A stretch of DNA of 64,000 nucleotides from Cyanidioschyzon merolae (lineage: Eukaryota): NCBI GenBank assembly GCA_000091205.1, contig AP006491.2. One strand, written 5' to 3'. Shown piece by piece: positions 1 to 54,779 of the stretch (position 1 is its first letter; every line of letters starts with the position of its first letter). The notes beneath the pieces are model-generated. The model did not search any database, was not told the DNA's origin, and worked only from the letters and a program-made list of their open reading frames with translations. Both the position numbers and the translations under genes were made by a program.

Positions 1-655
1 GGCTACTGTACGAACGCTCGTTCGAGAACGTTGCGAATTATCTTGCTTTCGATGAACGAATGTACTCCAGCAGGAAAGCGACGATGCAATCACTCCGAAA
101 AGTCGACCTCGAATCCGATAACCTTCACTCCTGCAAACATCATGTCGACGCTTCGCATCGTAAAATATCCGAAAAAGAATCAAGAGTCCGGAGCAGAACA
201 AGCCGTTCTGCATTCTATGGTACGCTGATAGGGGTGTAGCGGTACGGGCGCTGCGAAAGCTTCTCACGCTGTACGATCGTCGATAGCGGAACCAGAGTAC
301 CTTCCGATCCGGTAAGATGATCGCCAGCCGCGAAAGCATCCATGACACTGCACCATATCTTCGAGTGACGGGAGCGACCCGCACCGGTCGTCCATTTCAT
401 CCAGAATATGAGTCGGTTCCTAGGAGCATCCGAGTGCAGAGCCTATCAGCAGCGCCTCCCCGAACGCTGCCCCATGAAGCGAAGGATGCCCCCAGCGACG
501 CTCGTTCAGCAGCGCTCGACGCGGCAATGGCGAAGCGTCGACGACGCCCGGTCCCGTGACTCCTCGTTTGCGCTGTAGCGGGCGAGCGCTTTGGCTCTGG
601 GACGCAGTGGTGCCATCGAGGCTTGAATGTCGCTATACATCGCCAGGCGTTGTTG

Positions 656-1723
656 ATGATGCACCTCGGTGCGCACCAAAGCGACGCTTATCTCGGTTGG
701 CTTCCGCCAAACCTATCCCTCAGAGACTTGGATGGTTACACCGTCGCTGACTGCAGCGCACTGCTCGCTCCACGCGGAGGTCGTCTTGTGCTGACTCCAG
801 CTGAGAGCTCGAATGCTTCCGCATCAAGCAATAAGATTGTGCAAGCGGAGATCAATGTGGAATCTAGGCGGCATGCAACGCTGCGTTGGGCGAGTCTGGA
901 CGAGGCGTCCACATCCGAGTTGCTTCTCGGAGCTGTGCACGGCTCCGTGAAGTTCTGGATCTGCGACGAGGCGCGCCAGACGACGTCGTCGTCCGCTGAG
1001 CAGCCCTTCGTATCGAATGGCTCTGGAACTGCTCAAGTCACTGAGAGGCAACTGCGGGTTTTGATGGACCGCGAACCGACACAGCTGGGCGCACGGGGAA
1101 ACCACGTCAGCGGTGAGCAGTCGGGCCGTGCGACGACCGAGGCGCACCTTCGTGCAACTTGTCCCGCGACCCTGAGCAGCCCAGTCGAAAGCGATACCCA
1201 GCTACCACCGGAAGAGTGTGCGCGATGGCGCTTTCTGCGAAAGCAGGCACGCGAACGCCTCGAGCATTTCACTACGAAAACGAACGTTACAGCTTCCGCG
1301 GAGCGGCATGTGCACGAACAAGCACCGACACAGCGTCAATCGACACCTTCAAAGACTCTGCAGGCACAGGGCGCTACATCCGTACCAGAGTCGTCATCCA
1401 ATGATGATGATGGTGATGATGATGATGCTGTGCCCCAGCAAGCGGAGCATTCCATTTGCGAGGAGTCACTCGTACCGTTCGATGCCTCGATGCATTTACG
1501 AACCAAGTACATCAAAAAGTATCGTCGGAAACCCGCCAAATATGCTCGCAAGATTCTCAAGCGCCCACAAGCATACCTACTGCAAGCGAATTGGCTGCCA
1601 GTCGCTGCGGAGGATCGAAGCGAGATCACTGCCCTGCGCATGGGCACCCGAGTCGATGATCATAACCGAGTCGATGGAGCCGTGCTTGTCCGCGAGATGC
1701 CGACACCGTCCACAACCTGGTAG
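656..1723 (+). CDS. hypothetical protein (low-complexity, acidic D-rich tract, basic C-terminus)
   Basis: Track ORF 623..1723 begins with TTG; the first ATG is at 656. Long ORF in GC-rich DNA with no recognisable domain. Could be a frame artefact. Confidence 0.25.
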   Translation: MMHLGAHQSDAYLGWLPPNLSLRDLDGYTVADCSALLAPRGGRLVLTPAESSNASASSNKIVQAEINVESRRHATLRWASLDEASTSELLLGAVHGSVKFWICDEARQTTSSSAEQPFVSNGSGTAQVTERQLRVLMDREPTQLGARGNHVSGEQSGRATTEAHLRATCPATLSSPVESDTQLPPEECARWRFLRKQARERLEHFTTKTNVTASAERHVHEQAPTQRQSTPSKTLQAQGATSVPESSSNDDDGDDDDAVPQQAEHSICEESLVPFDASMHLRTKYIKKYRRKPAKYARKILKRPQAYLLQANWLPVAAEDRSEITALRMGTRVDDHNRVDGAVLVREMPTPSTTW

Positions 1724-2727
1724 TCGTCTCTTTTTGTGTCATGATTGCATATCTGGCGTGTTGCGGAATGGGGCTTCGCGTTTACGCGCAACAGCAGGTG
1801 CGCTACGCGTGAACCGTACCACCGAAACGTCTGACTCCAGCGTAGGAGCCACCGCGTGGCTACATCATCGAGTTGTCATACATGTTGACGCAGCATCCCT
1901 GCTACCGATGCGCCGTGTATCCATGAGGCACCTTCCTCCATCGTTCTATTGTTGTGACTTTATAATTGGTGGCCCCGCCGGCGAACGCGACATACATCCA
2001 TGAGGTACCTGGCGGCTGGCGGTCGCGTCTTGTGCCGTCTGGACGATAACGCTGACACAGACAGCGACTCGTTTGGACGAACGTGTGTCACGCGTTCATG
2101 GTGCATGATAAGGGCGCCGCTTTCTCTCGTGGATGGAGTCAACGGTACAGACCAGGCACTTGTTCAGGTATCGCAGCCGGTACTCTGGCACGAAGGCGTG
2201 CACTAGTTCCGCTTGTACCCATTTGAGAATAAAATGGAATAGGTCCTCCAACACGGGTGTTCACTTTAACTTTTGGACTCTTTCCATTGGCAGCGACAAC
2301 AGCTTTTGTGCGCTTTTTCTGCGACTGCTTCCCTTGGCTCGCTTTGATGATGTGCTTTATGCACGCTGGTCTCTCCTTCGGCCCAGCCTCGTTGTCAGCA
2401 TTCGAAAGATGTTGCTGACGGCAATCAGGTCCCGATTTCACGGCTTTCGGCTGTTGTCCACGCGTTTCATGCACAGGGGGTTGTTGCAATGCACGCTCCG
2501 CTCGCCATACTGAAGTTTGTTGTACACAGCTGCGGTGCACAGTGCGCTTGGATGTCAATGGACTGCGCTCAGGTGTTTCCATATGTCCACCAAACTTCCT
2601 GCTCCGAGCGCTGCCCTGTGGCACATGAACGCTTGCTTCATCGCTCGGTACATGCCTTCGATGGGTGCAGAGAGCTCGCCGCGGTGCCTTTCTCGGCTTT
2701 GGTGTCCGGTACCGTACACCGCTACGA

Positions 2728-3471
2728 TCAGCAGCGTCTTGTGGAGGCTCCCGTGGTCGACTTTTTAGTGTACGCTGCACAAGCAAGCATATGCACTTGC
2801 ATTCGATACAAACGTTGTCGTATGTGATGCTTTCCATGATGAGAAAACAAGTATCGGAACACACATCTCGGACTGGAGATCAAGTTCGGGATTTCGATTC
2901 GTTTACGCTCCCTGCCGTGCAAGGCGGTGATGCACGCTCCACTTGAAGCGATTGCCGCGATGACCCAAGTTCGAGTCCCAGACCCTTGTCTACGCAAACC
3001 GAAGGAACGATAGTGTCTGGGAGCGTATCTCGTGCGAGTGATCATGGTGCTGTCGAGTTCTGTCTCATCGACGGTGATCACAGCGTAAGGATGATTCATC
3101 ACGCGTACAGCATCGATTCCTTGAGGTGGCACGTTCACGGGGAACGTTCGGCATGAGCGCGTACACAAGTGTTCAACGGAAACACTGAAGTTTGTTTCGT
3201 CGTCGATCCGGCAGCGCGAATGCCTGTGCCCACATTCGTTGCCTCGAAACAGAAAGACCGAAAAATTCCAGATTGCAGCTGATTTGAGCGCGCTCCCTAG
3301 ACGCAAAAGCGAAGCCTGGACGCTTGCAAGTGCGAATTCCATCATGATAGCGGTCGTAATCCAGATCTTACGTCGGAGGCTTCGCAAATCCTGCTGAGCC
3401 CCGGGAACGCAACAGATTCCAGCGGGAACACGTCGAAGACGCCACTCCGACACCCCGCCAACGAACCCCAT
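2728..3471 (-). CDS. hypothetical protein (possibly continues in ORF 2139..2864 after a frameshift or intron)
   Basis: ATG-initiated ORF (cat at 3469-3471). A faint 'GNE..GH.H' string was not supported as a metallophosphoesterase because the upstream motifs are absent. Confidence 0.2.
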   Translation of the reverse strand: MGFVGGVSEWRLRRVPAGICCVPGAQQDLRSLRRKIWITTAIMMEFALASVQASLLRLGSALKSAAIWNFSVFLFRGNECGHRHSRCRIDDETNFSVSVEHLCTRSCRTFPVNVPPQGIDAVRVMNHPYAVITVDETELDSTMITRTRYAPRHYRSFGLRRQGSGTRTWVIAAIASSGACITALHGRERKRIEIPNLISSPRCVFRYLFSHHGKHHIRQRLYRMQVHMLACAAYTKKSTTGASTRRC

Positions 3472-30667: not shown

Positions 30668-30809
30668 ATTGCAGCAGCGCCCTGGGGGTGGCGCGGCGGC
30701 AGCGCGCACTGCATCGCGCGATGCATCGATGCTGATTCGGGGCGAGGGGGTGGCGGCGGCGGCGGCGGCACAGCGGAGCATCGCGCGCGATTTTTCGTAC
30801 GATAGTGGG

Positions 30810-32170
30810 TCTCGGATGGATGTTTTTCAGGAGAAAACGTTTCCTTAGGCCAGCGTTCTCCGATTATGCGCATTTTTCTTTTCTTTTTGGGTTTGTTTTC
30901 AGTGCGCGGTGAGGTATCCACCGAATGCTCTACCTCCAAGTTACATTACCTAAGAAGGTCTCGGATGGATGTTTTTCATGGAGAAAACGTTTCCTTAGGC
31001 CAGCGTTCTCCGATTATGCGCATTTTTCTTTTCTTTTTGGGTTTGTTTTCAGTGCGCGGTGAGGTATCCACCGAATGCTCTACCTCCAAGTTACATTACC
31101 TAAGAAGGTCTCGGATGGATGTTTTTCATGGAGAAAACGTTTCCTTAGGCCAGCGTTCTCCGATTATGCGCATTTTTCTTTTCTTTTTGGGTTTGTTTTC
31201 AGTGCGCGGTGAGGTATCCACCAAACGCTCTACCTCCAAGTTACATTACCTAAGAAGGTCTCGGATGGATGTTTTTCATGGAGAAAACGTTTCCTTAGGC
31301 CAGCGTTCTCCGATTATGCGCATTTTTCTTTTCTTTTTGGGTTTGTTTTCAGTGCGCGGTGAGGTATCCACCAAATGCTCTACCTCCAAGTTACATTACC
31401 TAAGAAGGTCTCGGATGGATGTTTTTCATGGATAAAACGTATCCTTATGCCAGCATGCTCCGATTATGCGCATTTTTCTTTTCTTTTTGGGTTTGTTTTC
31501 AGTGCGCGGTGAGGTATCCACCGAATGCTCTACCTCCAAGTAACATTATCTAAGAAGGTCTCGGATGGATGTTTTTCATGGAGAAAACGTTTCCTTAGGC
31601 CAGCGTTCTCCGATTATGCGCATTTTTCTCTTCTTTTTGGGTTTGTTTTCAGTGCGCGGTGAGGTATCCACCAAATGCTCTACCTCCAAGTTACATTACC
31701 TAAGAAGGTCTCGGATGGATGTTTTTCATGGAGAAAACGTTTCCTAAGGCCAGCGTTCTCCGATTATGCGCATTTTTCTTTTCTTTTTGGGTTTGTTTTC
31801 AGTGCGCGGTGAGGTATCCACCGAATGCTCTACCTCCAAGTAACATTATCTAAGAAGGTCTCGGATGGATGTTTTTCATGGAGAAAACGTTTCCTTAGGC
31901 CAGCGTTCTCCGATTATGCGCATTTTTCTCTTCTTTTTGGGTTTGTTTTCAGTGCGCGGTGAGGTATCCACCAAATGCTCTACCTCCAAGTTACATTACC
32001 TAAGAAGGTCTCGGATGGATGTTTTTCATGGAGAAAACGTTTCCTAAGGCCAGCGTTCTCCGATTATGCGCATTTTTCTTTTCTTTTTGGGTTTGTTTTC
32101 AGTGCGCGGTGAGGTATCCACCGAATGCTCTACCTCCAAGTAACATTATCTAAGAAGGTCTCGGATGGAT
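30810..32170. repeat. satellite DNA, 150-bp monomer x ~9, with 300-bp (dimeric) higher-order structure in the distal half
   Basis: 'tcggatggatgtttttcatggagaaaacgtttccttaggccagcgttctccgattatgcgcatttttcttttctttttgggtttgttttcagtgcgcggtgaggtatccacc(g/a)aatgctctacctccaagttacattacctaagaaggtc' recurs at 30812, 30961, 31111 and so on. Alternating variants (ccgaatgc/ccaaatgc; taagaagg/tcTaagaagg) give the 300-bp period seen in track ORFs at 31565 and 31865. Confidence 0.95.
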
Positions 32171-32499
32171 GATGGATTCTGCATTGCGCGATGGATACCG
32201 GTAAACAAGTTCCATGACCTATGCTTCCACACGGATGTCCTGATCGTATTACATGGAACGGGTCCAGGTTCGTGACTCGGACGTACTCGCGGAGGTGTGG
32301 CTCTGTTTCGACGTTCATCGGCACGAGTCTCTCTGTGGGATTTTTATGTGTGAATGCCTCCTCTTCGGTTCGATCATCTGCAGCCTGAAGTATTCCGGTC
32401 GATCCATTTCGTCTGGTGCTATTATCAGACGCCAAATGATCGTGATGGCAGCGTTCAAGTCCCGTTGTCTCTGTTCTTTGTTGTTGTGCACGCATTACC

Positions 32500-34680: not shown

Positions 34681-35550
34681 CTACAAATGATTTGTTCCCG
34701 TCCCATGGCAGCGCTTACAGGTCAGCATACCCTTGTGTTGGCAGACGGGGCACGGTCGACACACGGTCGACGGATTTCCAAGACGCTCGCGTGCCTCTGC
34801 GTCACCCGCTTGCGCCCGCTCAACGAGCTGATTCATCTCCTCATAGCTGGGAAACGCGGAAACGTATCGGCAGCCAGCACCGCGACACCACGGGCACTGC
34901 CGCGCGCCCGCGCCGTCGCACCAGATACAGCGATCCATGTAGCTACTGAGCGGCGAGCCGAACCCGTCACTCGGATTCCGCTTTCGCCGGTAATACACAA
35001 CCGAGACTCCCCGCGATGCCGCACTGTCCGCAGCACCCGAGCCGGAACGTCTGCACGTGCAATCGTCAACGTCCTGAGCACAGGAACCGGTCCGTGCCTG
35101 CAGGGTGCTGCCTTCACAAGCACAGTCCGTCACTCCAGCAGCTGAAGCGTCCACAAGCGGTGCACGGTTGCCGGACGGCTGCGGACTCGACTGACTCTCT
35201 GGCGTAGCGGCTCCTGTTTCTGTACCTGTGCTTCTGTTTGGGTTCACCGTACGCGTGCCCGTAAGTACGCTCTGCCGCAGCTCGGACGCGAAGCGTGCCT
35301 GGAAACTAACTTCCGGGTGATACACGCCCGGACGCTCAGCCCACGCCGACAACTCCATCGCCACCGAGACCGCGTCGCGCTCATACGCTCGCTCCAGGCT
35401 GCGCCGCGTCGTCGCCCCGCCCTCGCCCAGCGCTCGTAGCTGCTGCCACCGACTCGAGTATCGACTCCGTTTCTCTACTGTCTGACCATAAATGCGCCAA
35501 CTATGTCTACTCGAAAGAAGTCTATCACCTTTCGTTCCGAGAACAAACAT
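34681..35550 (-). CDS. DnaJ-type zinc-finger (CxxCxGxG x4) protein, BSD2-like
   Basis: C-terminal 'CIWCDGAG...CPWCRGAG...CPVCQHKG...CKRCHGTG' gives four CxxCxGxG repeats typical of the DnaJ cysteine-rich domain, in a small non-J-domain protein. The track start at 35574 is GTG; ATG at 35550. Confidence 0.6.
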   Translation of the reverse strand: MFVLGTKGDRLLSSRHSWRIYGQTVEKRSRYSSRWQQLRALGEGGATTRRSLERAYERDAVSVAMELSAWAERPGVYHPEVSFQARFASELRQSVLTGTRTVNPNRSTGTETGAATPESQSSPQPSGNRAPLVDASAAGVTDCACEGSTLQARTGSCAQDVDDCTCRRSGSGAADSAASRGVSVVYYRRKRNPSDGFGSPLSSYMDRCIWCDGAGARQCPWCRGAGCRYVSAFPSYEEMNQLVERAQAGDAEARERLGNPSTVCRPCPVCQHKGMLTCKRCHGTGTNHL

Positions 35551-36289
35551 TGTCGTTCCCTCGGAGCTGTGCACAAAACACCGAACACTTTTGAAATGCT
35601 AGCAACTTTAGAAGCAACTGCAGAGGCGTTCACCACAATGTCAACGGAAGCCGCTACCCGCGAACGGTGATGGCGCTCTTGCCGGCAAAGCGCCTCCGTC
35701 AAAACGCCGCCATCACCGCTGACGCGCGTCGCCATCTCCATCGACACGCCATCGATCGCCAAGATCTTACACCACGCAGCGGCCTGCGTTACCCCGAGCT
35801 GGGCGCTTGGTATCAGTGCACGGTGTAGCATCCATCGACCGACGCCCAAGCCCCATAACCGATACTTCTGCTCGGATATACTGGTTGCTTTGTAGGTTCT
35901 ATCGTGCGCCAAGTGTGTGTCGTGAGCGTCCGCGGCAGCGCCCATAGCGCCGGTGCGGTCGCTGCACGGAGACAGAACATCGTTTCCGTACCACTGAGGG
36001 CGTCGGATCAAGGAATGCTACGCCTGACACGGACTCGGGGCTGGTTATCATTCTGGGAGCCTGCAAGCTACACATACAGAAATACTGCCTGGGGAAGCGC
36101 GAAAAATGATATGCTTGGAGTCCACTAGGAACAACGCGACGCCCAAACGCACACGAAACACCTCCAGTCCCAGAATGAAATGCCTTGCGTACGAGTTGCT
36201 CAGATCTCGCTGAAGCGTCCGTCGCTGGGCAAATCATGAAGCACAATCCTGGTAACTCGTCCGGCTCGCAGGAGCTTCCGCCTAGGAGA

Positions 36290-39105
36290 TAAACTTTCGG
36301 CAATGCGGAAAGCTTTTCGACTTTTAAAGATAACCGTGGTGGCGGAAAGAAATCCTTTTCTCGTTATTACTAGGTGTCTAGTTTCTGTTCTTTTTTTCTA
36401 AAGTGCGCTCGATACGCGCACCTCTATATCTGGCAGGCATCAGACACGACGCGCATGCCGCCGTTGAAGGAAAACGCTATTCTGATCCTTCGCGTGTTGT
36501 TCTAAACTACAAGATGCATTTGCGTTAGAGCCCCAGCAAAGTATAGATTTTAGTTCTAGTGTGTTTCAACCCTAAGATTAACGTATGCAAGAGTTTTTCG
36601 CGGTTTATAACGGAAGCGTTCAAAATGCGTTCATTTTCAAAAATCAACATATACAGGAATTTTATGGGGATGCAGGTCGAGGACCCTGGGAGCACCGCTG
36701 TCGCCGACTGCCGGAAGAAAACCAAAACCAATGCCGAACCCAGAGGAACAAGACGACACCAAGGAGCAAAAGCGTGAGGCTCGGCGTCAGAAGCTGCGAG
36801 AAAGTCGACACTACCACGAGATAATTGTGAACGCATGTCTACTTGGACATACCAAGAATCCGTACAAGGAAAGGTTGCGGGACGCCATCAGAAACCGTAA
36901 CGAGTCGTACTCCAGGGGCATTATAAAGGCTTCGTCAGGGCTGATGCATTCGGTGGAGACGTATCGCGACGTGACGCACATCAAAACAGTCGAGGTTCCG
37001 GAGGAGGTTTTCGACAGGACCTTCATTAGGCACCTAATGCTTGGCAGAGAAGGAACCTCGATGAGAAATGAGCGAGTGCATGCCCTCCATGAAAACTGCG
37101 GCGAACAGCGCTTCAACGGTACTCGGTACGGCGAGAACTGGAAGATTTGCTGGTACGGGACGATGGAGTACCTCAGGAACCTGAAGAACCATTTGAACGT
37201 GAACCTCGGACGTTTCATGATACGCTCTATTTTTTTCGCTGTATCCGGGTCTCTCTCGCAAAGGGATATGGATCATCATCGATGGCATCTTTAACGATCG
37301 TAAGAATGAAGAGGAGATCGACTTTGGCGACTAGTAGACATCACGCTGGAGAAGGAATGCGGCTTCTGTAATCCGTACGGCTATTCAAGAGCACCGTGCG
37401 GTCTTGGCGCTGGCGAATCCAGTAGAAAAGATATCAGAGTTGAAAAAAGATGAAATGTACGTTATGCCCTCATCCTCCGCAATTTCGTGTTTTTGGACCG
37501 AGAACTCGAACGCAAAGCGGAGCTGAAGCTGAGTGAGTGGACAAATGACGAATCGGAGACACGGAAGGGTGCCCTAATGGGGAAGCGCTTCAACGTCGTT
37601 CCGTTGTGCAACATCAAGTCGCACTTTGTGAGTATCGACTCTGGCGTCCTTTACTGCATCAAGAAGGAGATCTGTCCGGAGTTCGATGTAAGGAAGATAG
37701 AGTTCACCGGCGAGAACCGGGAGACGTGCTGGAAGATCATCTTCGATTTCAAAAGTGTCAGATTGCGCAAGAAAACGGTATGCACTGGGATTATCGAAAG
37801 CGAATGGGTATGCATATGTGTTCACAACAGGCGCTTGAAGGTAAATCATCTTGTTCCGTCTTCGTTGGCGCCCTCGGCGAAGCGTGAAGAAAACAACGAG
37901 ACGCGCTCTGGAACACATGATCCGCAGGAGAGCGACTCTGTCGCTGGCGCGGACCCTGGGAATACGAACATCGTGACCATCGCTGCACCTTTTGTTGGGT
38001 AGATGGCAATGACCGCAACCTACGTCAGAAAGACATGCGTGTTCTAAAGTTCTCAGGAGCGAGGTACTATCGAGAATCGGGAATAATGAATGCGAGGAAG
38101 AAAACAGAGAAATGGAACGCAGAAGTGCAAGAGCACCTGGTAGCGATCAGCCAGGTGACGAAGCGCGGAGCGAACTTTCGAGCTTTTCTGGAGTTCATGA
38201 AAATTCTTGCTGCTGATGACGAGGCGCATTGGAAAGCGTATCCAAAAGCCCAGGTAAGCCCGTCAGCGTTTGAATCTGTACAGAGGGAAGCAGCGTACAT
38301 TCGTCACCTTTTCAATGAGTTGAGCGCCCTCAAAGAGCATGAAAGTCAAAGGCTCGTGGTGGCAAACTGAGCAGGGCGTCGGGTGCCCTGCCCAAAGGGT
38401 GTACACCAGCCCCGTCGACATGAGCGTACAACGAATGCGCACAGCGTTTTCACACCATACCGATGGATGAGTTCCGAGCATCCTATACACACCATGCATT
38501 GGGTTGTACGCTTCAGAGGGTCGATATGGAAAAGTGTCAGCGGAGCCCTGAGGGTGTAAAAAAGTCCGGAGCGCTGACGGTACAGCGAATGGAACCGAGG
38601 GCGCAAGTTCGAGGACTGCTTGCATTCGTAAGTACAAGCAATGATGGCAAGAAACGTATGCAGTTTGTGAACCAAGACTTTCATGCCGCTATCAATACCA
38701 GACGAGGAGTTTTCATGAACATGAGACCCGCAGCGCAGACAGAATCCAACTTTGTGGGGCCACCTCCCAAAGCTGCGTTCTACAAGGAGAAGCTGAAACC
38801 GACAGCGGACGGCGGGTCCATGAAAAACGCTACGAGCCGTCTGTTTGTGGGCGCACCAGTACACCGCACATAGGCGCGAGACATTTTTTGCTCTGCAGGT
38901 CACATATATTGGCGCTCATCAAACGTCGAGGCTGGATATCTACATCAAATTCGCAAAAAATACTCAAGACAGGAACAGAGCGAGCAGATGCATGTTCCAG
39001 TTTAGACAAAAGCGAAAGTAGGGTGCTGCGCGCTCGACCACTCGTCTACCGGTATACGAGTCCGAGGAACGAGCCTGCACCGGGGAAAGCTCGTGCCAAA
39101 ACAAC
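36290..39105. mobile_element. AT-richer (~48-50% GC by eye versus ~58-60% around it) inserted island carrying TnpB/Fanzor-like ORFs; putative transposon or Fanzor-associated element
   Basis: Abrupt composition shift. All substantial ORFs (36731-37294, 37487-38002, 38035-38370, 38463-38873) are on the + strand, opposite to both flanking host genes. The block lies between the DnaJ-ZnF gene and the UBA1 3' end. Confidence 0.55.
36731..38873 (+). pseudogene. TnpB/Fanzor-like RuvC nuclease, split over 4 ORFs in 3 frames (pseudogene or intron-containing gene)
   Basis: RuvC-I-like 'VAGADPGNTNIVTIA' at the end of ORF 37487-38002 (TnpB/Fanzor consensus (I/V)DxGxxNxxT; Fanzors often 'IDPG'). 'RVYTSPVD' (the YTS motif that precedes the Zn finger in TnpB) at ~38395-38420 in another frame. 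RuvC-III-like 'FVNQDFHAAINTRRG' (consensus DxNAAxNIxxxG) at ~38680-38725. Order and ~240-aa spacing fit TnpB. The Zn-finger cysteines are degenerate. GT-AG-like sites 'CAGgtaagc' at 38250 and 'gtaag' at 37306. Confidence 0.45.
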
Positions 39106-39111
39106 GCACCC

Positions 39112-42100
39112 TTACCGACGAAAACGATAGCGTACAAATGGTACCTCAACTTCCTCACCAGTGGAGGCATCTTCTGCCATGACTTCGAAAACCAGGAAGC
39201 GGTCCTTGTCGGTCAGTTGTATTTTTCCAACGGCTTGCGCAAGCTCAGTAAGCGGCGTCGCGCGGCGTTCCGCGGCCTTTTTCGGTGCTAACCAGCCTGA
39301 AAAGAGGATCGCAACGCCACACGACATCATGCTGATATGGAGACCAAGCTCGCGCTCAAAATGCTCCATGAACTCGGCCAACGTCAGATCGTGTCCATTT
39401 CCATCTACCTCGATACGATCCCACAGCGAGAACGTACGGTTACCGCTGGGTGACATGGGCTGCAACGGGGCCTGGATTGGTTCGCTAAAGTTGAAAAGTG
39501 AAAGTGCCAGGTTCACGTAGCTGTTGCGGAAGCGCTCGAGCACCTTGACGCGATCGACGAGCGGGACGCTCGTTCCGTTCGTCACAGCGGAGCTCGTGCT
39601 GATCGCGGAGAAACTCGAAGCTGAAAGCGCCCGTGGATTCGTCCTCAAGATCGGACGGATCTGAGCGAGCTTGTAGATCTCGAGACACACGAGCCCTGCC
39701 ACCAGCGCGGTACTCGTGGCAATCGCGGGTATGATTCGCCCCGCGATGCCTCGTGACTTGTGCTTGTCCGCCAGCGGTATCCCATAATTCAAAGCGCGCA
39801 AATTGCTCGCAGCGGTGACGAAATCCATGTCCCAGCGATCCTCGTCGTCTTTCTCGAACTCCAACGGATAGAGGGACAAGCTGGCAAATGATTCGGGTGG
39901 CGGCAAGCGCGCCAACAGCTGCTCAATGCGTTGTTGGTCGACATTGGCGGTCACAGCGGCGCCGCTTGCTTGCGCCTCCTCCTCAGAAGCGGCAATCTTG
40001 ACACCAGAACTCGGTTGGAAAGCAGGTACCGAAACATTCGCAACGATCGCTCGTACCTGCTCGCGATCTGTGCAGAGAGGTATTCCGAACGTCTCTGCGC
40101 GCAGGTTTGCCGCCGCTACAATGAACTCAAGGTGCAACGGATCTGCAGGATCGAAACGAAGCGGCGTCGGCGCCCGTTTCGTCCCGCTCCAAAATGGCTG
40201 TCCCGAGCTGTCAACCATATCTGGCGGAAACGCGTGAAGTAGCTGGCGAATATTGTTGACGTAGAGTTCTTCGAACTTGTTGCGCGCCCAAACCACGCAG
40301 TCCTTGAAGTTTTGCGGGCGATACGTCTGCAGGTTCTCAAGTACGTTCTCCAAAGCTCCAGAAAATATGCCGGGTCCCTGTTTCTCTAGCTCTGCGATGT
40401 ACTCAGAGCCTCGCTCCAGGTACTGCTTGGTATCCTCGATGGAGGCCTTGAAGAGGCCCTCAAACAAATCGCGAGCCCATTGAAGCGTATGTTCGATTCT
40501 GTAGGGGAAATTTTTCAGCGTACACATGGGAATGCTTCGCTCCGGCGGGTCGCGCGACGATCCGTATGACTCGGTGAGATAGGGAACCACCACTTGGGTG
40601 CTGCCTTTGGTGCCTAGCGTGCCGGAATCCAGCAGAGGTTTCAGATAGTAAACGCAGCGCTGATCGATATATAAACGAGCGTCAACATTATCCAAGGCCG
40701 TGCAAACCCCATCGAGCGGCTCCCAGAAATCATCGCTGAAGACATGCTCGGTGTCCGGTCCAACGCGCATCTCGAGCGCTCGAACGTTGAGCTCCGGATT
40801 CAGCCGCAGAGCGGCATCGCGTGCCGCCAGGGACTTGCTGCGGCCAATGTCGGTTGCTCGGAAGAGAAACTGCCGATTCAGATTGCTCCGTTCTATCGTG
40901 TCCATATCGGTAATTGCAATCGATCCACCATGACTCGCGAGTCCCAGTCCCATGCACGCCCAACATTTGAGGAGCTCTGCAGCAATCGCTCCGGCCCCAA
41001 CACAAAAGTAGGCCAGATCGTGAATCGTATCCTGCAACGCACGGCCAAAGACTGCAATCTGTCCGTCATAGCGTGTCCCCCGGGGAGCGCACTCCAGCTC
41101 GTTTGGCAACGGCGTCGGTAACGCCTCCATGGCGTTGAACGAAAAGATCTGGTGAATGGGGGTAAACTTGCCGGTGACTGCCTTGAGAACCTCCTGTGCG
41201 GCGATCCCACCAAGAATCGATGCCATCGGAGCGAGCTCCCCGTATACGGTTCTGACAAACGCGTTAAGCAATGCATCGTGCTTTTCTTGAATATCGGCGG
41301 GTAGCATGCGCTTGAACGCCGCAACTTCAGCCTCAGTACCAGGCGCAGGCAACCGTCCGAATTTTGATAGAGCCTGAAACATGGCATGCAATGCAAAGGT
41401 TCGCTCCTCATTCATAAAGTCCAGCGATGCAAACCAATTCGGGTCCACCACGTCTGAGAGCGTGGCGCTCTCTGGATCCCATGTCGACGCTGCCATTCTA
41501 TACAGCAGCTCAACCGGGTGAAAGTGCACCGTGCGGGGTACTTTCACTTCAGTGACGATGCCACCCCGTCGGTAGACGCCGGCCTCACGGGTGTCAGCGT
41601 CAATCACAAAAGTATACGGACTCGTGATCTGAACGACACGAAACATCCGGTTGGGTTCATTGAACATGGGCATTCCGTCCACCTCGGTGAACATGACATA
41701 CATTCCTTCCTCCAGGTCATGCCGCTGATCATCGAGGCAGGTGACGCACGCCTTTTCCTCATTCGAAATATGGCTGATATGCGCGGATCGTGGCTCCTCT
41801 CCGTTGTCATCGATAACTGTATGGGCGTCGCCAAAATCGTTGAGGACGTAGCCGAATACTCCTCGTGACTGAACGATCGTCAGTGGCACCCTAACCGATC
41901 GGCAGACGCGATCGAGCTCGATGTGCCTATCGATGGAGAGCTCGTTCACTAGCACAACTGCTGCAAACCCACGAATACGATCTGGATCAATGAGTTCCGC
42001 CCAGGACGCCGCGTCCTCCGTGTACACGTGACAGTACGGGTTCAGCTCCACTAGGTGCGGTACCACGACCGTATGAAGTGGTGTCCCCAGCAGTGACGCA

Positions 42101-42378
42101 TCGCAAGCGTAAAAATTGGCGGCCATATGCTGCAAAGCTAGTGGTGCTGGATCATAGACGTGGAGCGCATGGAAGCCAGCCAGCGCCAGGTCTTTCGCGA
42201 TCTCCGTTCCCGTCCCTGTGAGTCCAATCACCAGCACTGAAGCTCCTGCGAGGCGACGTTGCGCCTCGTGACCCAGCACGTACAGTTGACGCGAGTACAG
42301 GGACTCGTCTATGGCCCCGCTCTCTGCTTGCGTGCGCGACACGCGTTCCGGTGGGACAGAGTCCCCCAGCCGCAACAT
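39112..42378 (-). CDS. UBA1: ubiquitin-activating enzyme E1
   Basis: 'YSRQLYVLGHEAQRRL' (E1 N-terminal hallmark). Two ThiF/MoeB folds ('VLVIGLTGTGTEIAKDLALAG' and 'YFCVGAGAIAAELLKCWACMGLG'). Catalytic-Cys region 'PMCTLKNFPYRIEHTLQWAR'. C-terminal UFD. The track start at 42552 is GTG; the first ATG is at 42378, 25 codons before YSRQLY. About 1089 aa in one ORF. Confidence 0.9.
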   Translation of the reverse strand: MLRLGDSVPPERVSRTQAESGAIDESLYSRQLYVLGHEAQRRLAGASVLVIGLTGTGTEIAKDLALAGFHALHVYDPAPLALQHMAANFYACDASLLGTPLHTVVVPHLVELNPYCHVYTEDAASWAELIDPDRIRGFAAVVLVNELSIDRHIELDRVCRSVRVPLTIVQSRGVFGYVLNDFGDAHTVIDDNGEEPRSAHISHISNEEKACVTCLDDQRHDLEEGMYVMFTEVDGMPMFNEPNRMFRVVQITSPYTFVIDADTREAGVYRRGGIVTEVKVPRTVHFHPVELLYRMAASTWDPESATLSDVVDPNWFASLDFMNEERTFALHAMFQALSKFGRLPAPGTEAEVAAFKRMLPADIQEKHDALLNAFVRTVYGELAPMASILGGIAAQEVLKAVTGKFTPIHQIFSFNAMEALPTPLPNELECAPRGTRYDGQIAVFGRALQDTIHDLAYFCVGAGAIAAELLKCWACMGLGLASHGGSIAITDMDTIERSNLNRQFLFRATDIGRSKSLAARDAALRLNPELNVRALEMRVGPDTEHVFSDDFWEPLDGVCTALDNVDARLYIDQRCVYYLKPLLDSGTLGTKGSTQVVVPYLTESYGSSRDPPERSIPMCTLKNFPYRIEHTLQWARDLFEGLFKASIEDTKQYLERGSEYIAELEKQGPGIFSGALENVLENLQTYRPQNFKDCVVWARNKFEELYVNNIRQLLHAFPPDMVDSSGQPFWSGTKRAPTPLRFDPADPLHLEFIVAAANLRAETFGIPLCTDREQVRAIVANVSVPAFQPSSGVKIAASEEEAQASGAAVTANVDQQRIEQLLARLPPPESFASLSLYPLEFEKDDEDRWDMDFVTAASNLRALNYGIPLADKHKSRGIAGRIIPAIATSTALVAGLVCLEIYKLAQIRPILRTNPRALSASSFSAISTSSAVTNGTSVPLVDRVKVLERFRNSYVNLALSLFNFSEPIQAPLQPMSPSGNRTFSLWDRIEVDGNGHDLTLAEFMEHFERELGLHISMMSCGVAILFSGWLAPKKAAERRATPLTELAQAVGKIQLTDKDRFLVFEVMAEDASTGEEVEVPFVRYRFRR

Positions 42379-43978
42379 GCTTGTCCGGCGGTTTTTCCAA
42401 CTACCCGAAGGCGACTCACCGTCAGGGCCCCGTAACAGACGTTTGCTTCCGGTTCCCGTCTTGACGCTTTTCGCTTTTTCGCACAAACCTGCGCACAAAT
42501 ACAGCTGAAGACGACGCCTGCCGCTGATCGCTTTGTCGACTTTGTTCACCACCGTTTAGGGCAAGCGAGCAACCTAACCAGCTTATGAGACGTCCCAGAG
42601 CAACTTTTCCGTTCAAACGCTTGTCACCTGAGCACTTCCCCGATGAACTATGGGCACACAGTCAATTTAGACGATCCTGAACACAACGTCAGTCCCGAAC
42701 ATGCACCTGCACTCATTCGGCGCACGCAGGCAACGCACCGACTCCTGTCGTCACGCTGGCAGCGCTGGCGCCGCCTTTCGGGCGCGCGCTGCGGCGATTG
42801 CGTGCGGCTGTCGATGATGCGTGACAGCGCATTCGTGGCGTGGCACGACGCGCGGGAACATTCGCACATTCACCACCACAAACGCACACACGCATATCCC
42901 GTATGCATGCCACACACGTCTTGCTATTTTGGAAGACTGCAGAAGGCAGGCAGCGTGCCTCATATGCCGGCACGAAACCGGTGATCAGCAACGAGACGTC
43001 AACGCTCCCGCAGACGTTTTTCTCGCATGAATACCAGTCCAGTGGCACTCTGGGGACAAAGTGCTTGAGCGATCAGATGGCGTCCCTGGTGCCGAGTCTC
43101 CGGCAGATGCCGCACCGAGCCAGGGCCGCGCTCCTCTGCCTGCGCAGGTGACGGATCGAGGCATGCCGGGCAAGTCCGCCGTCGACGCCGCAGGAACATG
43201 AACAGGCGATGCCGAGCGCGTCCATCAGATTTTTTGTGGCGGATGACTGAAGAACCTGATGAAAACTCCCCGGATGCGCGTGCGCTACAAGCGATCAGGG
43301 CAGAGACCGCATCACCTCAAGGGATGCGATGAGGCGCTATGAGTCCCAGAATGGTGCGCTCCTCAGGCGTATCGGCTTGATGGGTCGTGTGTAATCTCCC
43401 GGATACCGAGGATGCCTCACAGGTATGCTGTGGTGCCCCAACTGTCGCCCTGCAGCGACAGATGGGCATTCCGATTCGTGTCCAGGCGTCGTTTCATGGG
43501 CAGGTGGCCAGGTGCGTATGCAGGAGCACGGCGACTATTACGTGCAGCGGGCACCGAGGACCACTGGAATGATCGCGCTTGCTTGCGTGGCGCGTATCAG
43601 AGGACGGGCGCGAGTCTTCTGGTATAGACCTGATCCAGAGGTAACGATTATTCCACACGAATGAACCTGGACTAGATGCACTGCGTAACAACCGTCCGCT
43701 TACGGGCTCTGTGCACACTTTCGTCCATCGTTGCATACCGGAACAGCAGAACAGTAGTGTCCGAAATCATCCATGTTTCGAAGCCGCTGCACGCAGAACT
43801 GAATGACTCGAGACTGTGCCGCCGGAACGCCCCTTCAAGCGCAGCATTGCCATACGAGTGCACCGGTGTACGTCAAGCGCGCTGTGCCCCCGCGTCTCTC
43901 TCCATTCCATGAGGACAGAACGACAACATCCCGAAATCGTCCTTGCCCTAGTAGAGAGGCCGCGCGAACAAGCGGATC

Positions 43979-46662: not shown

Positions 46663-48039
46663 GGCTGCAGCGAGCACTGTGGCCCCGCCAGTTCTGGACG
46701 AGATGTTGGCTCTGCGCTTCGTCTACGAAGCACATGAGCCTGACGCTGTGTTGCGCATTCAGAGGGCCGGCTTGCGCGTCTTCAGAGTACTGCTTCCCGG
46801 ACGCCGTTGCTCAGGAGCAGCTGGAACTTTTGCTGCGCTATCGGCGACCTTGTGATAGACGCAGCGTGCAGCCATTGCATCCCGGTTCGGTGTGCTGACG
46901 CTAGGCACTCGACACCCAGAGGATCGCACAAGCGAACCAGTGCTATGATCTCCAGAGGTAAGTTTGTGTGATGGTGAAAGTGATGGTGATGATGGTTTTG
47001 GTTGTTGCCCAAGGACCCTGGAGGTCTGTTGCTGAACGTTGGACGTTCTCTCGGATGCAGGTAACCCGCTTGCAATTGAGAATCCCCGATACCTGTTTAA
47101 ACGATCCGACATCCGAAAAACTATCGTCCGCAGCGCTGCCCCTCTGAGACGGTCATTGATGGATCACGCAGATCTTCCAGTCAGAAGCGCAGCTTCTCGG
47201 TCGGTGCTGAGAGTGAAGCATCTATCGCGTATGTGTCTTCATGGAAAAAGCGACGCACTCCTGTCTCTTCGCACATGCTCACGGTCACGCGTTGCTGCGG
47301 AATATGCACCAGTTGACCGCACCGCCTGATCAGCGCCTGAGGCGAACATGAGAACGTGCTGCGCAGCGCATGTGCGGCCCCGAAACGATTCCTCTCTAGC
47401 GCTCGATCCACTGATGGAATGAAGGTCGCGTCCGAGACTCCGCCACCGCGACGAAGCGATGCTACCAAGATGACGCATCTGATGATGCTGAGCGGTGAAC
47501 GGGTTCTCGCCTGCGTCCATGCGTGCGTGCGTCCTCGTATAGCGCCCCAGTTTTCCATACTGGACGGTAACGTGGCATTTACTGATCGCTTCGCACACAG
47601 GCAGTGTCAATGTGCACACGAACGCGTGTATGAGCATCGACTCTGGGGCGCGCTACTCTTCTGGCTCGCGACCACGTCCAGGCCGGTAACCGGGCACGCA
47701 CACCGGTCTTCCATATAGCGCTTTTCCGAATTCCGTAAACACTTTTCCAGAAGGTTTCCCTTGCCGCTGTTTGTCCCAACGCATGGCTGAAGCTTTGAAG
47801 CGCCCGGAGCTCATCAGATGAGCGCAGGCGTGGAAGCGAGCGCGACTCGATCGCGATGCACGGCGTCTCCCTCGAGTCGGCGCCCTCTGTGTGGTATAGA
47901 AAAGCCGTTCTAGCTCTATGAACTATCTGCTCCAGCGGTTCAGGCGCAAAGGCGGAGACGGAACTGCAGGTTCTAGGCACACACGATAGGTCGTATGAAC
48001 CGACCAGAATATCCTAGAAGAAGTATAGGTCGTGTAACT

Positions 48040-48175
48040 TGGAGGTAGGGTGTTTCATGGATACTTCACCGTGCACTGAAAAAAACACAAAAAGAAAGGA
48101 AAAAGCGCACAATCGGAGAACGCTGGCACAAGTAAACGTCTTGTCCATGAAAAAACAAGAAGAAAAAAATGCATG
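48040..48175. repeat. solo, diverged, inverted copy of the 150-bp satellite monomer
   Basis: 'ggaggtagggtgtttcatggatacttcaccgtgcactgaaaaaaacacaaaaagaaaggaaaaagcgcacaatcggagaacgctggc' is roughly the reverse complement of the 30810-32170 monomer ('...gccagcgttctccgattatgcgcatttttcttttctttttgggtttgttttcagtgcgcggtgaggtatccaccgaatgctctacctcc'). Confidence 0.75.
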
Positions 48176-53611: not shown

Positions 53612-54779
53612 AGCGACCTCTATAACGATTGAACTTGTTCGACGTGCGTGTATGTCCTACAACAACCCGACACGCATTCGAATTCGCATACGCACGCATC
53701 CGGCGCACGCATGCACCGACGGTGATGAAACGCCATCGCGATGCGTGCGCAGCATGCGGCGGTGGTGGCGGTGGCGGTGCCGGTGGCGATGCCGGTGGCC
53801 AACTCCCGTACGTTGGGTCTGTAGGCGGCATCGCGATCGCCCTGCGATGCGGCTACGGCGGCGTCGGTACGCTTCCGCCGCGGCCCGATGCGCTACGAAA
53901 TCCGTTGACAGCGCGGTGACGTCGCGCGCGTCGAGCCTCGGATGCGGCGTTCTATCGCGTGTAGCGATGCTGCTGATTTTTTTCATTGACAAAACGCTTA
54001 ATTTGACCACGGGTCCTCGAATGAACGATGATCATTGACGACTAGGGTGATCGGCCATCGTAAAGCACCCTGCATCCGGGTTCCATCACCTGTTCTCTGA
54101 TGTAATGATCGTTTTTACGTTCTATCGTGCGCCGAGTACCTGCTTTTGAGCGCCTGATAGAACGCCTGTAGCGTCACGCATGGAGTAGCGGGAGCACCGA
54201 CGCGTCCTGCATGCTATCCTGCGGAATCCTGGTGATGCAGCTCTGAAAAGCGGTATCTATGGCGGTCGCGCTGAAATATGTGCTTTCGACGGATTCGCTG
54301 CAACCGTTGAAGGTTCGGTTCCAGATGGTGTCGGTGTTCTGCGTGCTCGAGCGAGCAGGCTCTGGTGTATGATGCGGGCTGCCTGGTGCTTAGCGTCTGG
54401 ATGCAACGGATGCGCTTTCGCAAACAGTTCGTTATGTGCCGTTTGCGTTCGAAACTTGTTACCTTTCAGGAGCGAATGAAGCTTTCCACAGTACCCGTTT
54501 GAAAGGGTCTTTTAGAATGTAAAATCGGGGAATCTGAACAGAATACACGGGATTTGCGGTTGCTGTGCGCAAGCGAGGAAGAGCGCTTGATCAGCGCTGC
54601 TTCGTGGCATGTCGGGCTGGTCAGCATCGATTGTGCTCGTCCCAGCGAATCCAACCGCGCTTCTACACAGGATCACGCCCGGTCAGCGGCTCTGAATCGA
54701 ACTTTTTCTGTCGACTGCTCCGAGTCGCATGTCGTTTTCTGTTTCGCACATGCACATCAACCATGGTTTTCAGTGGATT

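Follow-up and report, generated by a model that had tools for sequence, protein, structure and literature searches.

We report that positions 35753-38902 of a 64,000-nucleotide stretch of contig AP006491.2 (hereafter the window, meaning the whole stretch that was analysed) are, with a probability of roughly 95%, a copy of the DNA transposon CMe-1A that is old and inactive. CMe-1A belongs to Cyanidioschyzon merolae 10D, lacks terminal inverted repeats (TIRs) and encodes a Fanzor1 protein. The initial annotation had described at this place a fragmented TnpB/Fanzor-like RuvC nuclease gene in an algal mobile element, likelier decayed than active, and this core is borne out by the identity to CMe-1A, by profile comparison and by the predicted fold.

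Identification of a CMe-1A copy

CMe-1A was described as a C. merolae family in the same paper that defined Fanzor1 and Fanzor2 (Bao & Jurka 2013, Mobile DNA 4:12; PMC3627910). According to these authors, its consensus measures 3,169 bp, and the genome contains about 150 copies, each with an identity of approximately 80% to this consensus. The element lacks TIRs, its target-site duplications were left undetermined, its 5' 635 bp share 95% identity with TE-N2_CMe, a non-coding repeat in its own right, and its protein is a single-exon Fanzor1 of 734 amino acids. The family was termed old, and some individual copies were reported to be intact (PMC3627910).

The consensus DNA and protein were taken from the additional files of that paper. 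In a blastn comparison, consensus 83-3015 aligned with window 35838-38772 with 26 gap columns; the identity, 80.3%, corresponds to the divergence reported for typical CMe-1A copies. A semi-global alignment placed the complete consensus (1-3169) on window 35753-38902, with 77.8% identity over 3206 columns. The homology is firm for 35838-38772, and the first ~85 bp and last ~130 bp of the copy are degenerate. An indirect sign of multiple copies comes from at least 71 related loci in metagenomes and from three TE-N2-like fragments at other places in the window. The window copy is one of the ~150 published ones, and its parts are as follows.

35753-38902, + strand: whole CMe-1A copy (consensus 1-3169), from blastn and semi-global alignment
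35753-36392, + strand: non-coding 5' part, the counterpart of TE-N2_CMe (consensus 1-635); 78% identity to consensus 83-635, GC content 0.57
36393-36663, + strand: untranslated leader from the TE-N2-like part to the Fanzor start codon (consensus 636-905); 82% identity
36664-38873, + strand: Fanzor1 (CMe-1) pseudogene, whose ATG at 36664 is that of the consensus; from alignment to the consensus coding sequence (CDS) 906-3110
38874-38902, + strand: degenerate right end, from an alignment of 41 distinct right ends with the consensus and the window

The element consists, in this order, of a ~635-bp non-coding TE-N2_CMe-like 5' module, a leader, a single intronless open reading frame (ORF) for the 734-aa Fanzor1 and a short, palindrome-bearing right end. 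The window copy shares with the consensus its genome, this layout down to the short 3' tail and the lack of TIRs: a search of 35650-39000 detected no inverted repeat other than an internal 14-nt pair. It differs from the intact consensus in being non-coding, with seven frameshifts, five stops, and C-terminal and right-end deletions. A self-BLAST of the island revealed no second full copy within the window. The element had previously been delimited as 36290-39105; the alignments move its start ~450-540 bp upstream (35838 by BLAST, ~35753 by semi-global alignment) and its end to ~38902. The GC-richer 5' part had been overlooked because the TE-N2-like module, with a GC content of 0.57, does not look AT-rich.

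The encoded protein family is Fanzor1

A hand-stitched 717-aa translation of the window copy was used as the first query. Neither this translation nor any single ORF matched a Pfam family; the stitched protein retrieved nothing significant from the PDB sequences with phmmer, nor did a profile of 13 close homologues (A1). In a set of 5.8 billion proteins, the same query found 42 homologues, with E-values down to 1e-214 and 50-60% identity. All of them are uninterrupted ORFs on JGI metagenome contigs except one (P0042), which comes from ENA. Their only precomputed Pfam label is DUF8286 (PF26935), of which a literature search found no mention. Mapped onto the window by tblastn, these homologues gave one colinear, frame-hopping match from ~36690 to 38850. 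A HMMER scan of 1.84 billion representatives (50% clustering) with the 13-sequence profile retrieved 2,155 proteins at E ≤ 1e-3, of which 340 reached E ≤ 1e-30.

From this family, 39 diverse full-length members were assembled into a second alignment and profile (A2), in which the RuvC-I Asp (D484) and the RuvC-II Glu (E656) are invariant and the RuvC-III Asp is nearly so. The profile search for Fanzor that had been proposed for this locus was positive at this level, the stitched translation alone having remained unmatched: A2 matched the Fanzor1 structures of Parasitella (9cf0, 1.3e-21), Spizellomyces (8gkh, 3.7e-16) and Guillardia (9cer, 7.4e-11), with the motifs DPG, DE[FY][RK]T[ST] and NRD in register between the family and the solved structures.

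The fold was examined on P0001, an intact relative, in place of the broken window copy. This protein shares ~71% identity with the CMe-1 consensus; with the window copy the figure is 54-64%, depending on the tblastn segment. Its AlphaFold2 model had a mean predicted local distance difference test score (pLDDT) of 79.7 and a predicted template modelling score (pTM) of 0.78. When compared with the PDB using Foldseek, the top seven matches were all Fanzor1 chains (E from 8e-18 to 1e-14). The best of them was SpuFz1 of Spizellomyces punctatus (E = 8e-18, target-normalised template modelling (TM) score 0.69), and Cas12 effectors followed far behind. Profile and predicted fold together confirm the CMe-1 family as Fanzor1.

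RuvC motifs and the missing zinc ribbon

Three motifs of the split RuvC domain were located in the window copy.

37949-37978, + strand: RuvC-I, ADPGNTNIVT, with the codon of the catalytic Asp at 37952-37954; aligned counterparts are GADPGNTNIIT in CMe-1 and the invariant D484 in A2
38463-38483, + strand: RuvC-II, MDEFRAS, with the codon of the catalytic Glu at 38469-38471; aligned counterparts are VDEFRTS in CMe-1, the invariant E656 in A2 and LLDEYKTS in SpuFz1
38670-38708, + strand: RuvC-III motif NQDFHAAINTRRG, catalytic Asp codon 38676-38678; consensus counterpart NRDFNAAINIRRC

The D, E and D codons are therefore kept in order (37952, 38469, 38676), so that the window copy retains the triad as codons, and the intact relative P0001 has the Fanzor1 fold in its model. 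A 'DPG' signature of Fanzors has been described (bioRxiv 10.1101/2023.08.09.552727). The RuvC-I and RuvC-III motifs had been recognised from the start, and both lie in frames that align to the family motifs. A third string, 'VYTS' (~38400), had been read as a motif preceding a zinc finger; it turned out to be an out-of-frame reading of a stretch that encodes ...KGTTPAPTTRTY... in the consensus, and the true RuvC-II is MDEFRAS.

For intact CMe-1, the consensus sequence is VDEFRTSYTHHELGC...RGLLALVSTTSDGKK...NRDFNAAINI and lacks zinc-finger cysteines. The zinc-ribbon region was compared over P0001 residues 656-725, corresponding to window 38463-38708. A CxxC pair between RuvC-II and RuvC-III is absent from the window copy, from the CMe-1 consensus and from 37 of the 39 diverse clade members; only 2 of the 39 sampled members keep one. 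The missing cysteines had been taken as an argument for decay, but the intact consensus also lacks them and, judged from these alignments, their absence is a clade-wide trait and not a sign of decay. Since 16 of the 39 members match PF07282 (the Cas12f1-like TNB model) despite the lost cysteines, the TNB domain seems to have been kept in the CMe-1 clade while the metal ligands were lost. We found no statement on the zinc-ribbon-less state of this clade in the Fanzor literature examined.

The region just before RuvC-I showed a further peculiarity. Metagenomic homologues carry there two to four tandem copies of an acidic repeat of ~25 aa (..KHEE.K.A.PATQEV.DND.VVDA..), at residues ~375-470 of P0001 (locus L005), equivalent to window ~37850-37945. 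The CMe-1 consensus and the window copy have a single copy, and in P0001 AlphaFold predicts this region to be disordered (pLDDT <50).

The window copy is a pseudogene

Relative to consensus CDS 906-3110, the window copy carries seven frameshifting indels: +1 at 36688, +1 at 37228, −3/+2 at 37451-37456, −1 at 37987, +1 at 38244, −1 at 38303 and +2 at 38389. In agreement, tblastn with the CMe-1 protein and 50 or more homologues traced the frame path 2>3>2>1>2>1>3. Deletions of 18 and 3 nt affect the C-terminus (~38843-38856), and deletions of 10 and 2 nt the right end. A consensus-guided, codon-by-codon translation, 67.6% identical to CMe-1, contains five in-frame stops, at 37332, 37335, 38255 (W to stop), 38368 (G to stop) and 38421 (R to stop), the first two being adjacent.

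37332-37337, + strand: two successive in-frame TAG codons in place of Lys-Lys of the consensus

Substitution rates at the three codon positions are near-even (0.184, 0.156 and 0.224), and the changed codons comprise 83 synonymous versus 230 non-synonymous ones, a pattern close to the expectation for unconstrained change.

The orthologous locus was recovered from three independent metagenome assemblies of close strains; it is 99.1-99.4% identical and has the same insertion and the same lesions. Between strains, the density of single-nucleotide polymorphisms (SNPs) per kb is 13.7-14.6 in the element, 3.4-4.0 in the neighbouring gene UBA1 and 1.1 in the upstream gene; the value of the element is ~4 times that of UBA1 and the highest of any segment at the locus. 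One further 1-nt indel distinguishes the strains within the ORF remnant. These results show a pseudogene that is unable to make the protein and whose sequence is drifting without constraint. The decay had been called possibly recent, which does not agree with a copy ~20% diverged from its consensus in a family that its discoverers called old.

Right end and putative guide RNA

We fetched at least 71 metagenomic loci of the CMe-1 family and aligned 41 distinct right ends. Their homology stops sharply past ...GAA(A/C)GGCG, which is followed by a loosely conserved TTyG. Ahead of this point and after the stop codon, the family carries two palindromes, TGCCGCCA...TGGCGGCA and CGTTCGA-CTT-TCGAACG, the latter in one variant. 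In the window copy, a deletion has removed the first palindrome's 5' arm, and the right end has thereby lost one hairpin arm. RNAalifold, run on 21 right ends, detected no supported consensus structure.

By analogy with the characterised Fanzor1 enzymes, intact family members would cut double-stranded DNA with the RuvC D-E-D site under the guidance of an omegaRNA. By homology only, this guide RNA would come from the right end of the element and read into the flank.

Evaluation of alternative explanations

Three observations weigh against parts of the interpretation given above. The C4 (CCCC) zinc ribbon, which is part of the motif by which Bao & Jurka defined Fanzor (PMC3627910), is not found in the CMe-1 clade. 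According to Saito et al. 2023 (PMC10432273), SpuFz1 and TnpB have this finger in common, and it occurs in all biochemically characterised Fanzor1 enzymes; because of its absence here, nuclease activity is something that we infer even for intact members. Hand-specified hairpins at the right end had 80.5% paired cells versus at most 62% in slid controls, yet almost no compensatory changes were observed. Finally, alignment to the consensus is poor at both extremities (the last ~85 bp on the 5' side and ~60-130 bp on the 3' side), so that neither the exact termini nor any target-site duplication could be defined, as had already been the case for the discoverers of the family.

A quite different account would be an active Fanzor gene whose frame is restored by the splicing of short introns, an option that had been proposed from the strings 'CAGgtaagc' at 38247 and 'gtaag' at 38630, both of which contain a GT. 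Introns are indeed present in the Fanzor genes of some other eukaryotes. However, in the family consensus and in dozens of metagenomic homologues the gene is one continuous ORF, and the window copy is colinear with this ORF, its length differences being indels of just 1-3 nt without any intron-like insert. Compared with the intronless ORF, it contains no additional stretch that splicing could take out. The first candidate donor aligns base-for-base to coding CCCGGTGGGC (Pro-Arg-Trp-Ala), where the frame change is a 1-nt insertion, and the second to coding GTGAGTAC (Val-Ser-Thr); the frame changes are indels against an intronless consensus, the five stops fall within aligned codons, and substitutions are not concentrated at third codon positions. 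In addition, the whole genome of C. merolae, as presented by Matsuzaki and colleagues in 2004, reportedly has only about 27 introns. We consider restoration of the frame by splicing very improbable. Recoding and assembly error were likewise rejected, since the copy is colinear with the intronless consensus, its lesions are many, and the same lesions appear in independent assemblies at 99% identity.

Even less credible is a chance occurrence of RuvC-like motifs in non-coding or unrelated DNA, with no real Fanzor relic. Its one favourable point, that a direct match to Pfam or PDB sequences is absent both for the individual ORFs and for the stitched translation, is outweighed by homologue E-values down to 1e-214, by a 2.9-kb nucleotide alignment, 80% identical, to a published element, and by the agreement of both the family profile and the structural model with solved Fanzor1 structures; a chance assembly of motifs is refuted by these data. 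The relic could also have been co-opted, with the TE-N2-like 5' module serving as promoter or regulator of the adjacent − strand gene, or with the remnant yielding a non-coding RNA. The left end lies merely ~180-260 bp upstream of the start of that gene (34681-35574), and the insertion is common to all related strains sampled. Against this, the element has the highest SNP density at the locus and no sign of constraint, an Rfam scan of 35400-39200 matched no family (only a chance-level hit to a long non-coding RNA, E = 0.87), and little about selection can be concluded from the sharing of an insertion among strains with 99% identity. Such domestication is unlikely, and the lack of constraint led us to reject it. 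An old, inactive CMe-1A copy is the reading that we retain.

Comparison with known systems

Through the P0001 model, the family shows the same overall fold as SpuFz1 (PDB 8GKH, 9CEU-9CEZ) and the Fanzor1 proteins of Parasitella (9CF0) and Guillardia (9CER), as well as the same order of RuvC motifs (DPG...DE[FY][RK]T[ST]...NRD). It differs from SpuFz1 in sequence, with just ~15% identity, and in lacking the CCCC zinc ribbon that SpuFz1 has in its NUC/TNB domain; SpuFz1 elements also have 30-nt inverted repeats, whereas CMe-1A has none. With bacterial TnpB (IS200/IS605 and IS607) and Cas12 it has in common the split RuvC D-E-D nuclease core, and the P0001 model gave remote fold matches to Cas12b and Cas12f (E from 1e-3 to 0.1). 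In contrast to these systems, A2 had no direct sequence-profile match to TnpB or Cas12 chains, CMe-1A is without a TnpA partner gene and resides in a eukaryotic host, and CMe-1 has a much larger N-terminal helical (REC-like) region.

Association with TE-N2_CMe

Three more fragments of the window show 72-86% identity by blastn to the beginning (~250 bp) of the CMe-1A consensus, that is, to its TE-N2_CMe part.

47870-48049, − strand: TE-N2_CMe-like fragment
53987-54154, + strand: TE-N2_CMe-like fragment
32206-32247, + strand: TE-N2_CMe-like fragment

These are scattered copies of the non-coding module alone; no Fanzor ORF lies close to them. Most metagenomic copies of the family start at consensus ~640-690 and do not include the TE-N2 module. 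At several loci (L016, L018/L019, L022, L025 and L033), a TE-N2-like segment of ~200 bp (consensus ~84-280, equivalent to window 35838-36045) lies inverted ~100-150 bp upstream of the Fanzor core, and at L007, L022, L024/L025, L034 and L035 the left ends of TE-N2 occur 20-60 bp downstream of Fanzor right ends. From these arrangements, TE-N2 seems to be an independent element that has become associated with the Fanzor core time and again, not a fixed part of it.

Genomic setting of the element

Four proteins encoded in the window, UBA1, PEX1, ChlM and TyrRS, exactly match GenBank proteins of C. merolae 10D from a contig of 810,151 bp (BAM79942.1, BAM79937.1, BAM79944.1 and BAM79947.1, respectively); the element therefore sits in the genome of this strain. 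Both flanking genes had been placed on the strand opposite to the element, and this was found to be correct.

39112-42378 from the first ATG (39112-42552 as ORF), − strand: UBA1, ubiquitin-activating enzyme E1, a flanking host gene outside the element, from Pfam and an exact protein match
34681-35574, − strand: the other flanking gene, with a weak match to a BSD2-like cysteine-rich domain (Pfam)

UBA1 has the full set of E1 Pfam domains (ThiF, E1_FCCH, UBA_E1_SCCH and E1_UFD). Translated from its first ATG (1,088 aa), it is identical to BAM79942.1 / XP_005536228.1, while the 1,146-aa version given by the ORF finder did not match. Its stop codon is ~210 bp from the right end of the element; the element as a whole occupies intergenic space, with the − strand gene at 34681-35574 on one side and UBA1 on the other. 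Three UBA1-bearing JGI contigs (L002-L004; samples 3300053682, 3300057138 and 3300057248), 100% identical to the window across UBA1, end at 38950-39014. These assembly breaks just outside the right end are consistent with a repeat boundary and independently mark the return of unique sequence. ARAGORN predicted no tRNA genes in the window.

The view of the block 36290-39105 as a distinct, AT-richer island was supported in part. Its GC content is 0.501 versus 0.568 for the whole window, which puts it at the 3rd percentile among windows of the same size, but it is not unique, as lower values occur at 29.9-34.5 kb, the site of a tandem array. Similarly, a series of + strand ORFs (187, 171, 111, 43 and 136 aa) does run through three frames of the block, but not all sizeable ORFs are on this strand, since the − strand has ORFs of 185, 135, 124 and 114 aa. 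The tandem array (30808-32171) consists of 9.1 copies of a 150-bp unit at 97% identity and causes the lowest-GC, strongly T-skewed stretch of the window. It also creates an artefactual, repetitive ORF of 189 aa (30866-31435), and it stops ~35 bp short of the TE-N2-like fragment at 32206.

Implications

The locus is already known in kind: a 2013 publication covered the family together with its host, copy number and Fanzor1 content, and the biochemistry of Fanzor followed in 2023-2024. The value of this copy as a discovery is small, as it is a known, old and inactive copy in the genome where the family was first described. The check upholds a call made from motifs, corrects the boundaries and one motif, and removes the option of an active, intron-containing nuclease. 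Specialists in Fanzor might care about the clade-wide zinc-ribbon-less state and the variable association of the Fanzor core with the TE-N2-like module, both of which concern the family and not this dead copy. Tentatively, and with more doubt than confidence, we suggest that the intact thermoacidophilic red-algal members of this very large, zinc-ribbon-less D-E-D Fanzor1 clade (2,155 representatives) may be active, zinc-independent, omegaRNA-guided nucleases, and that TE-N2_CMe may be a separate partner that lands beside either end of the core in either orientation.

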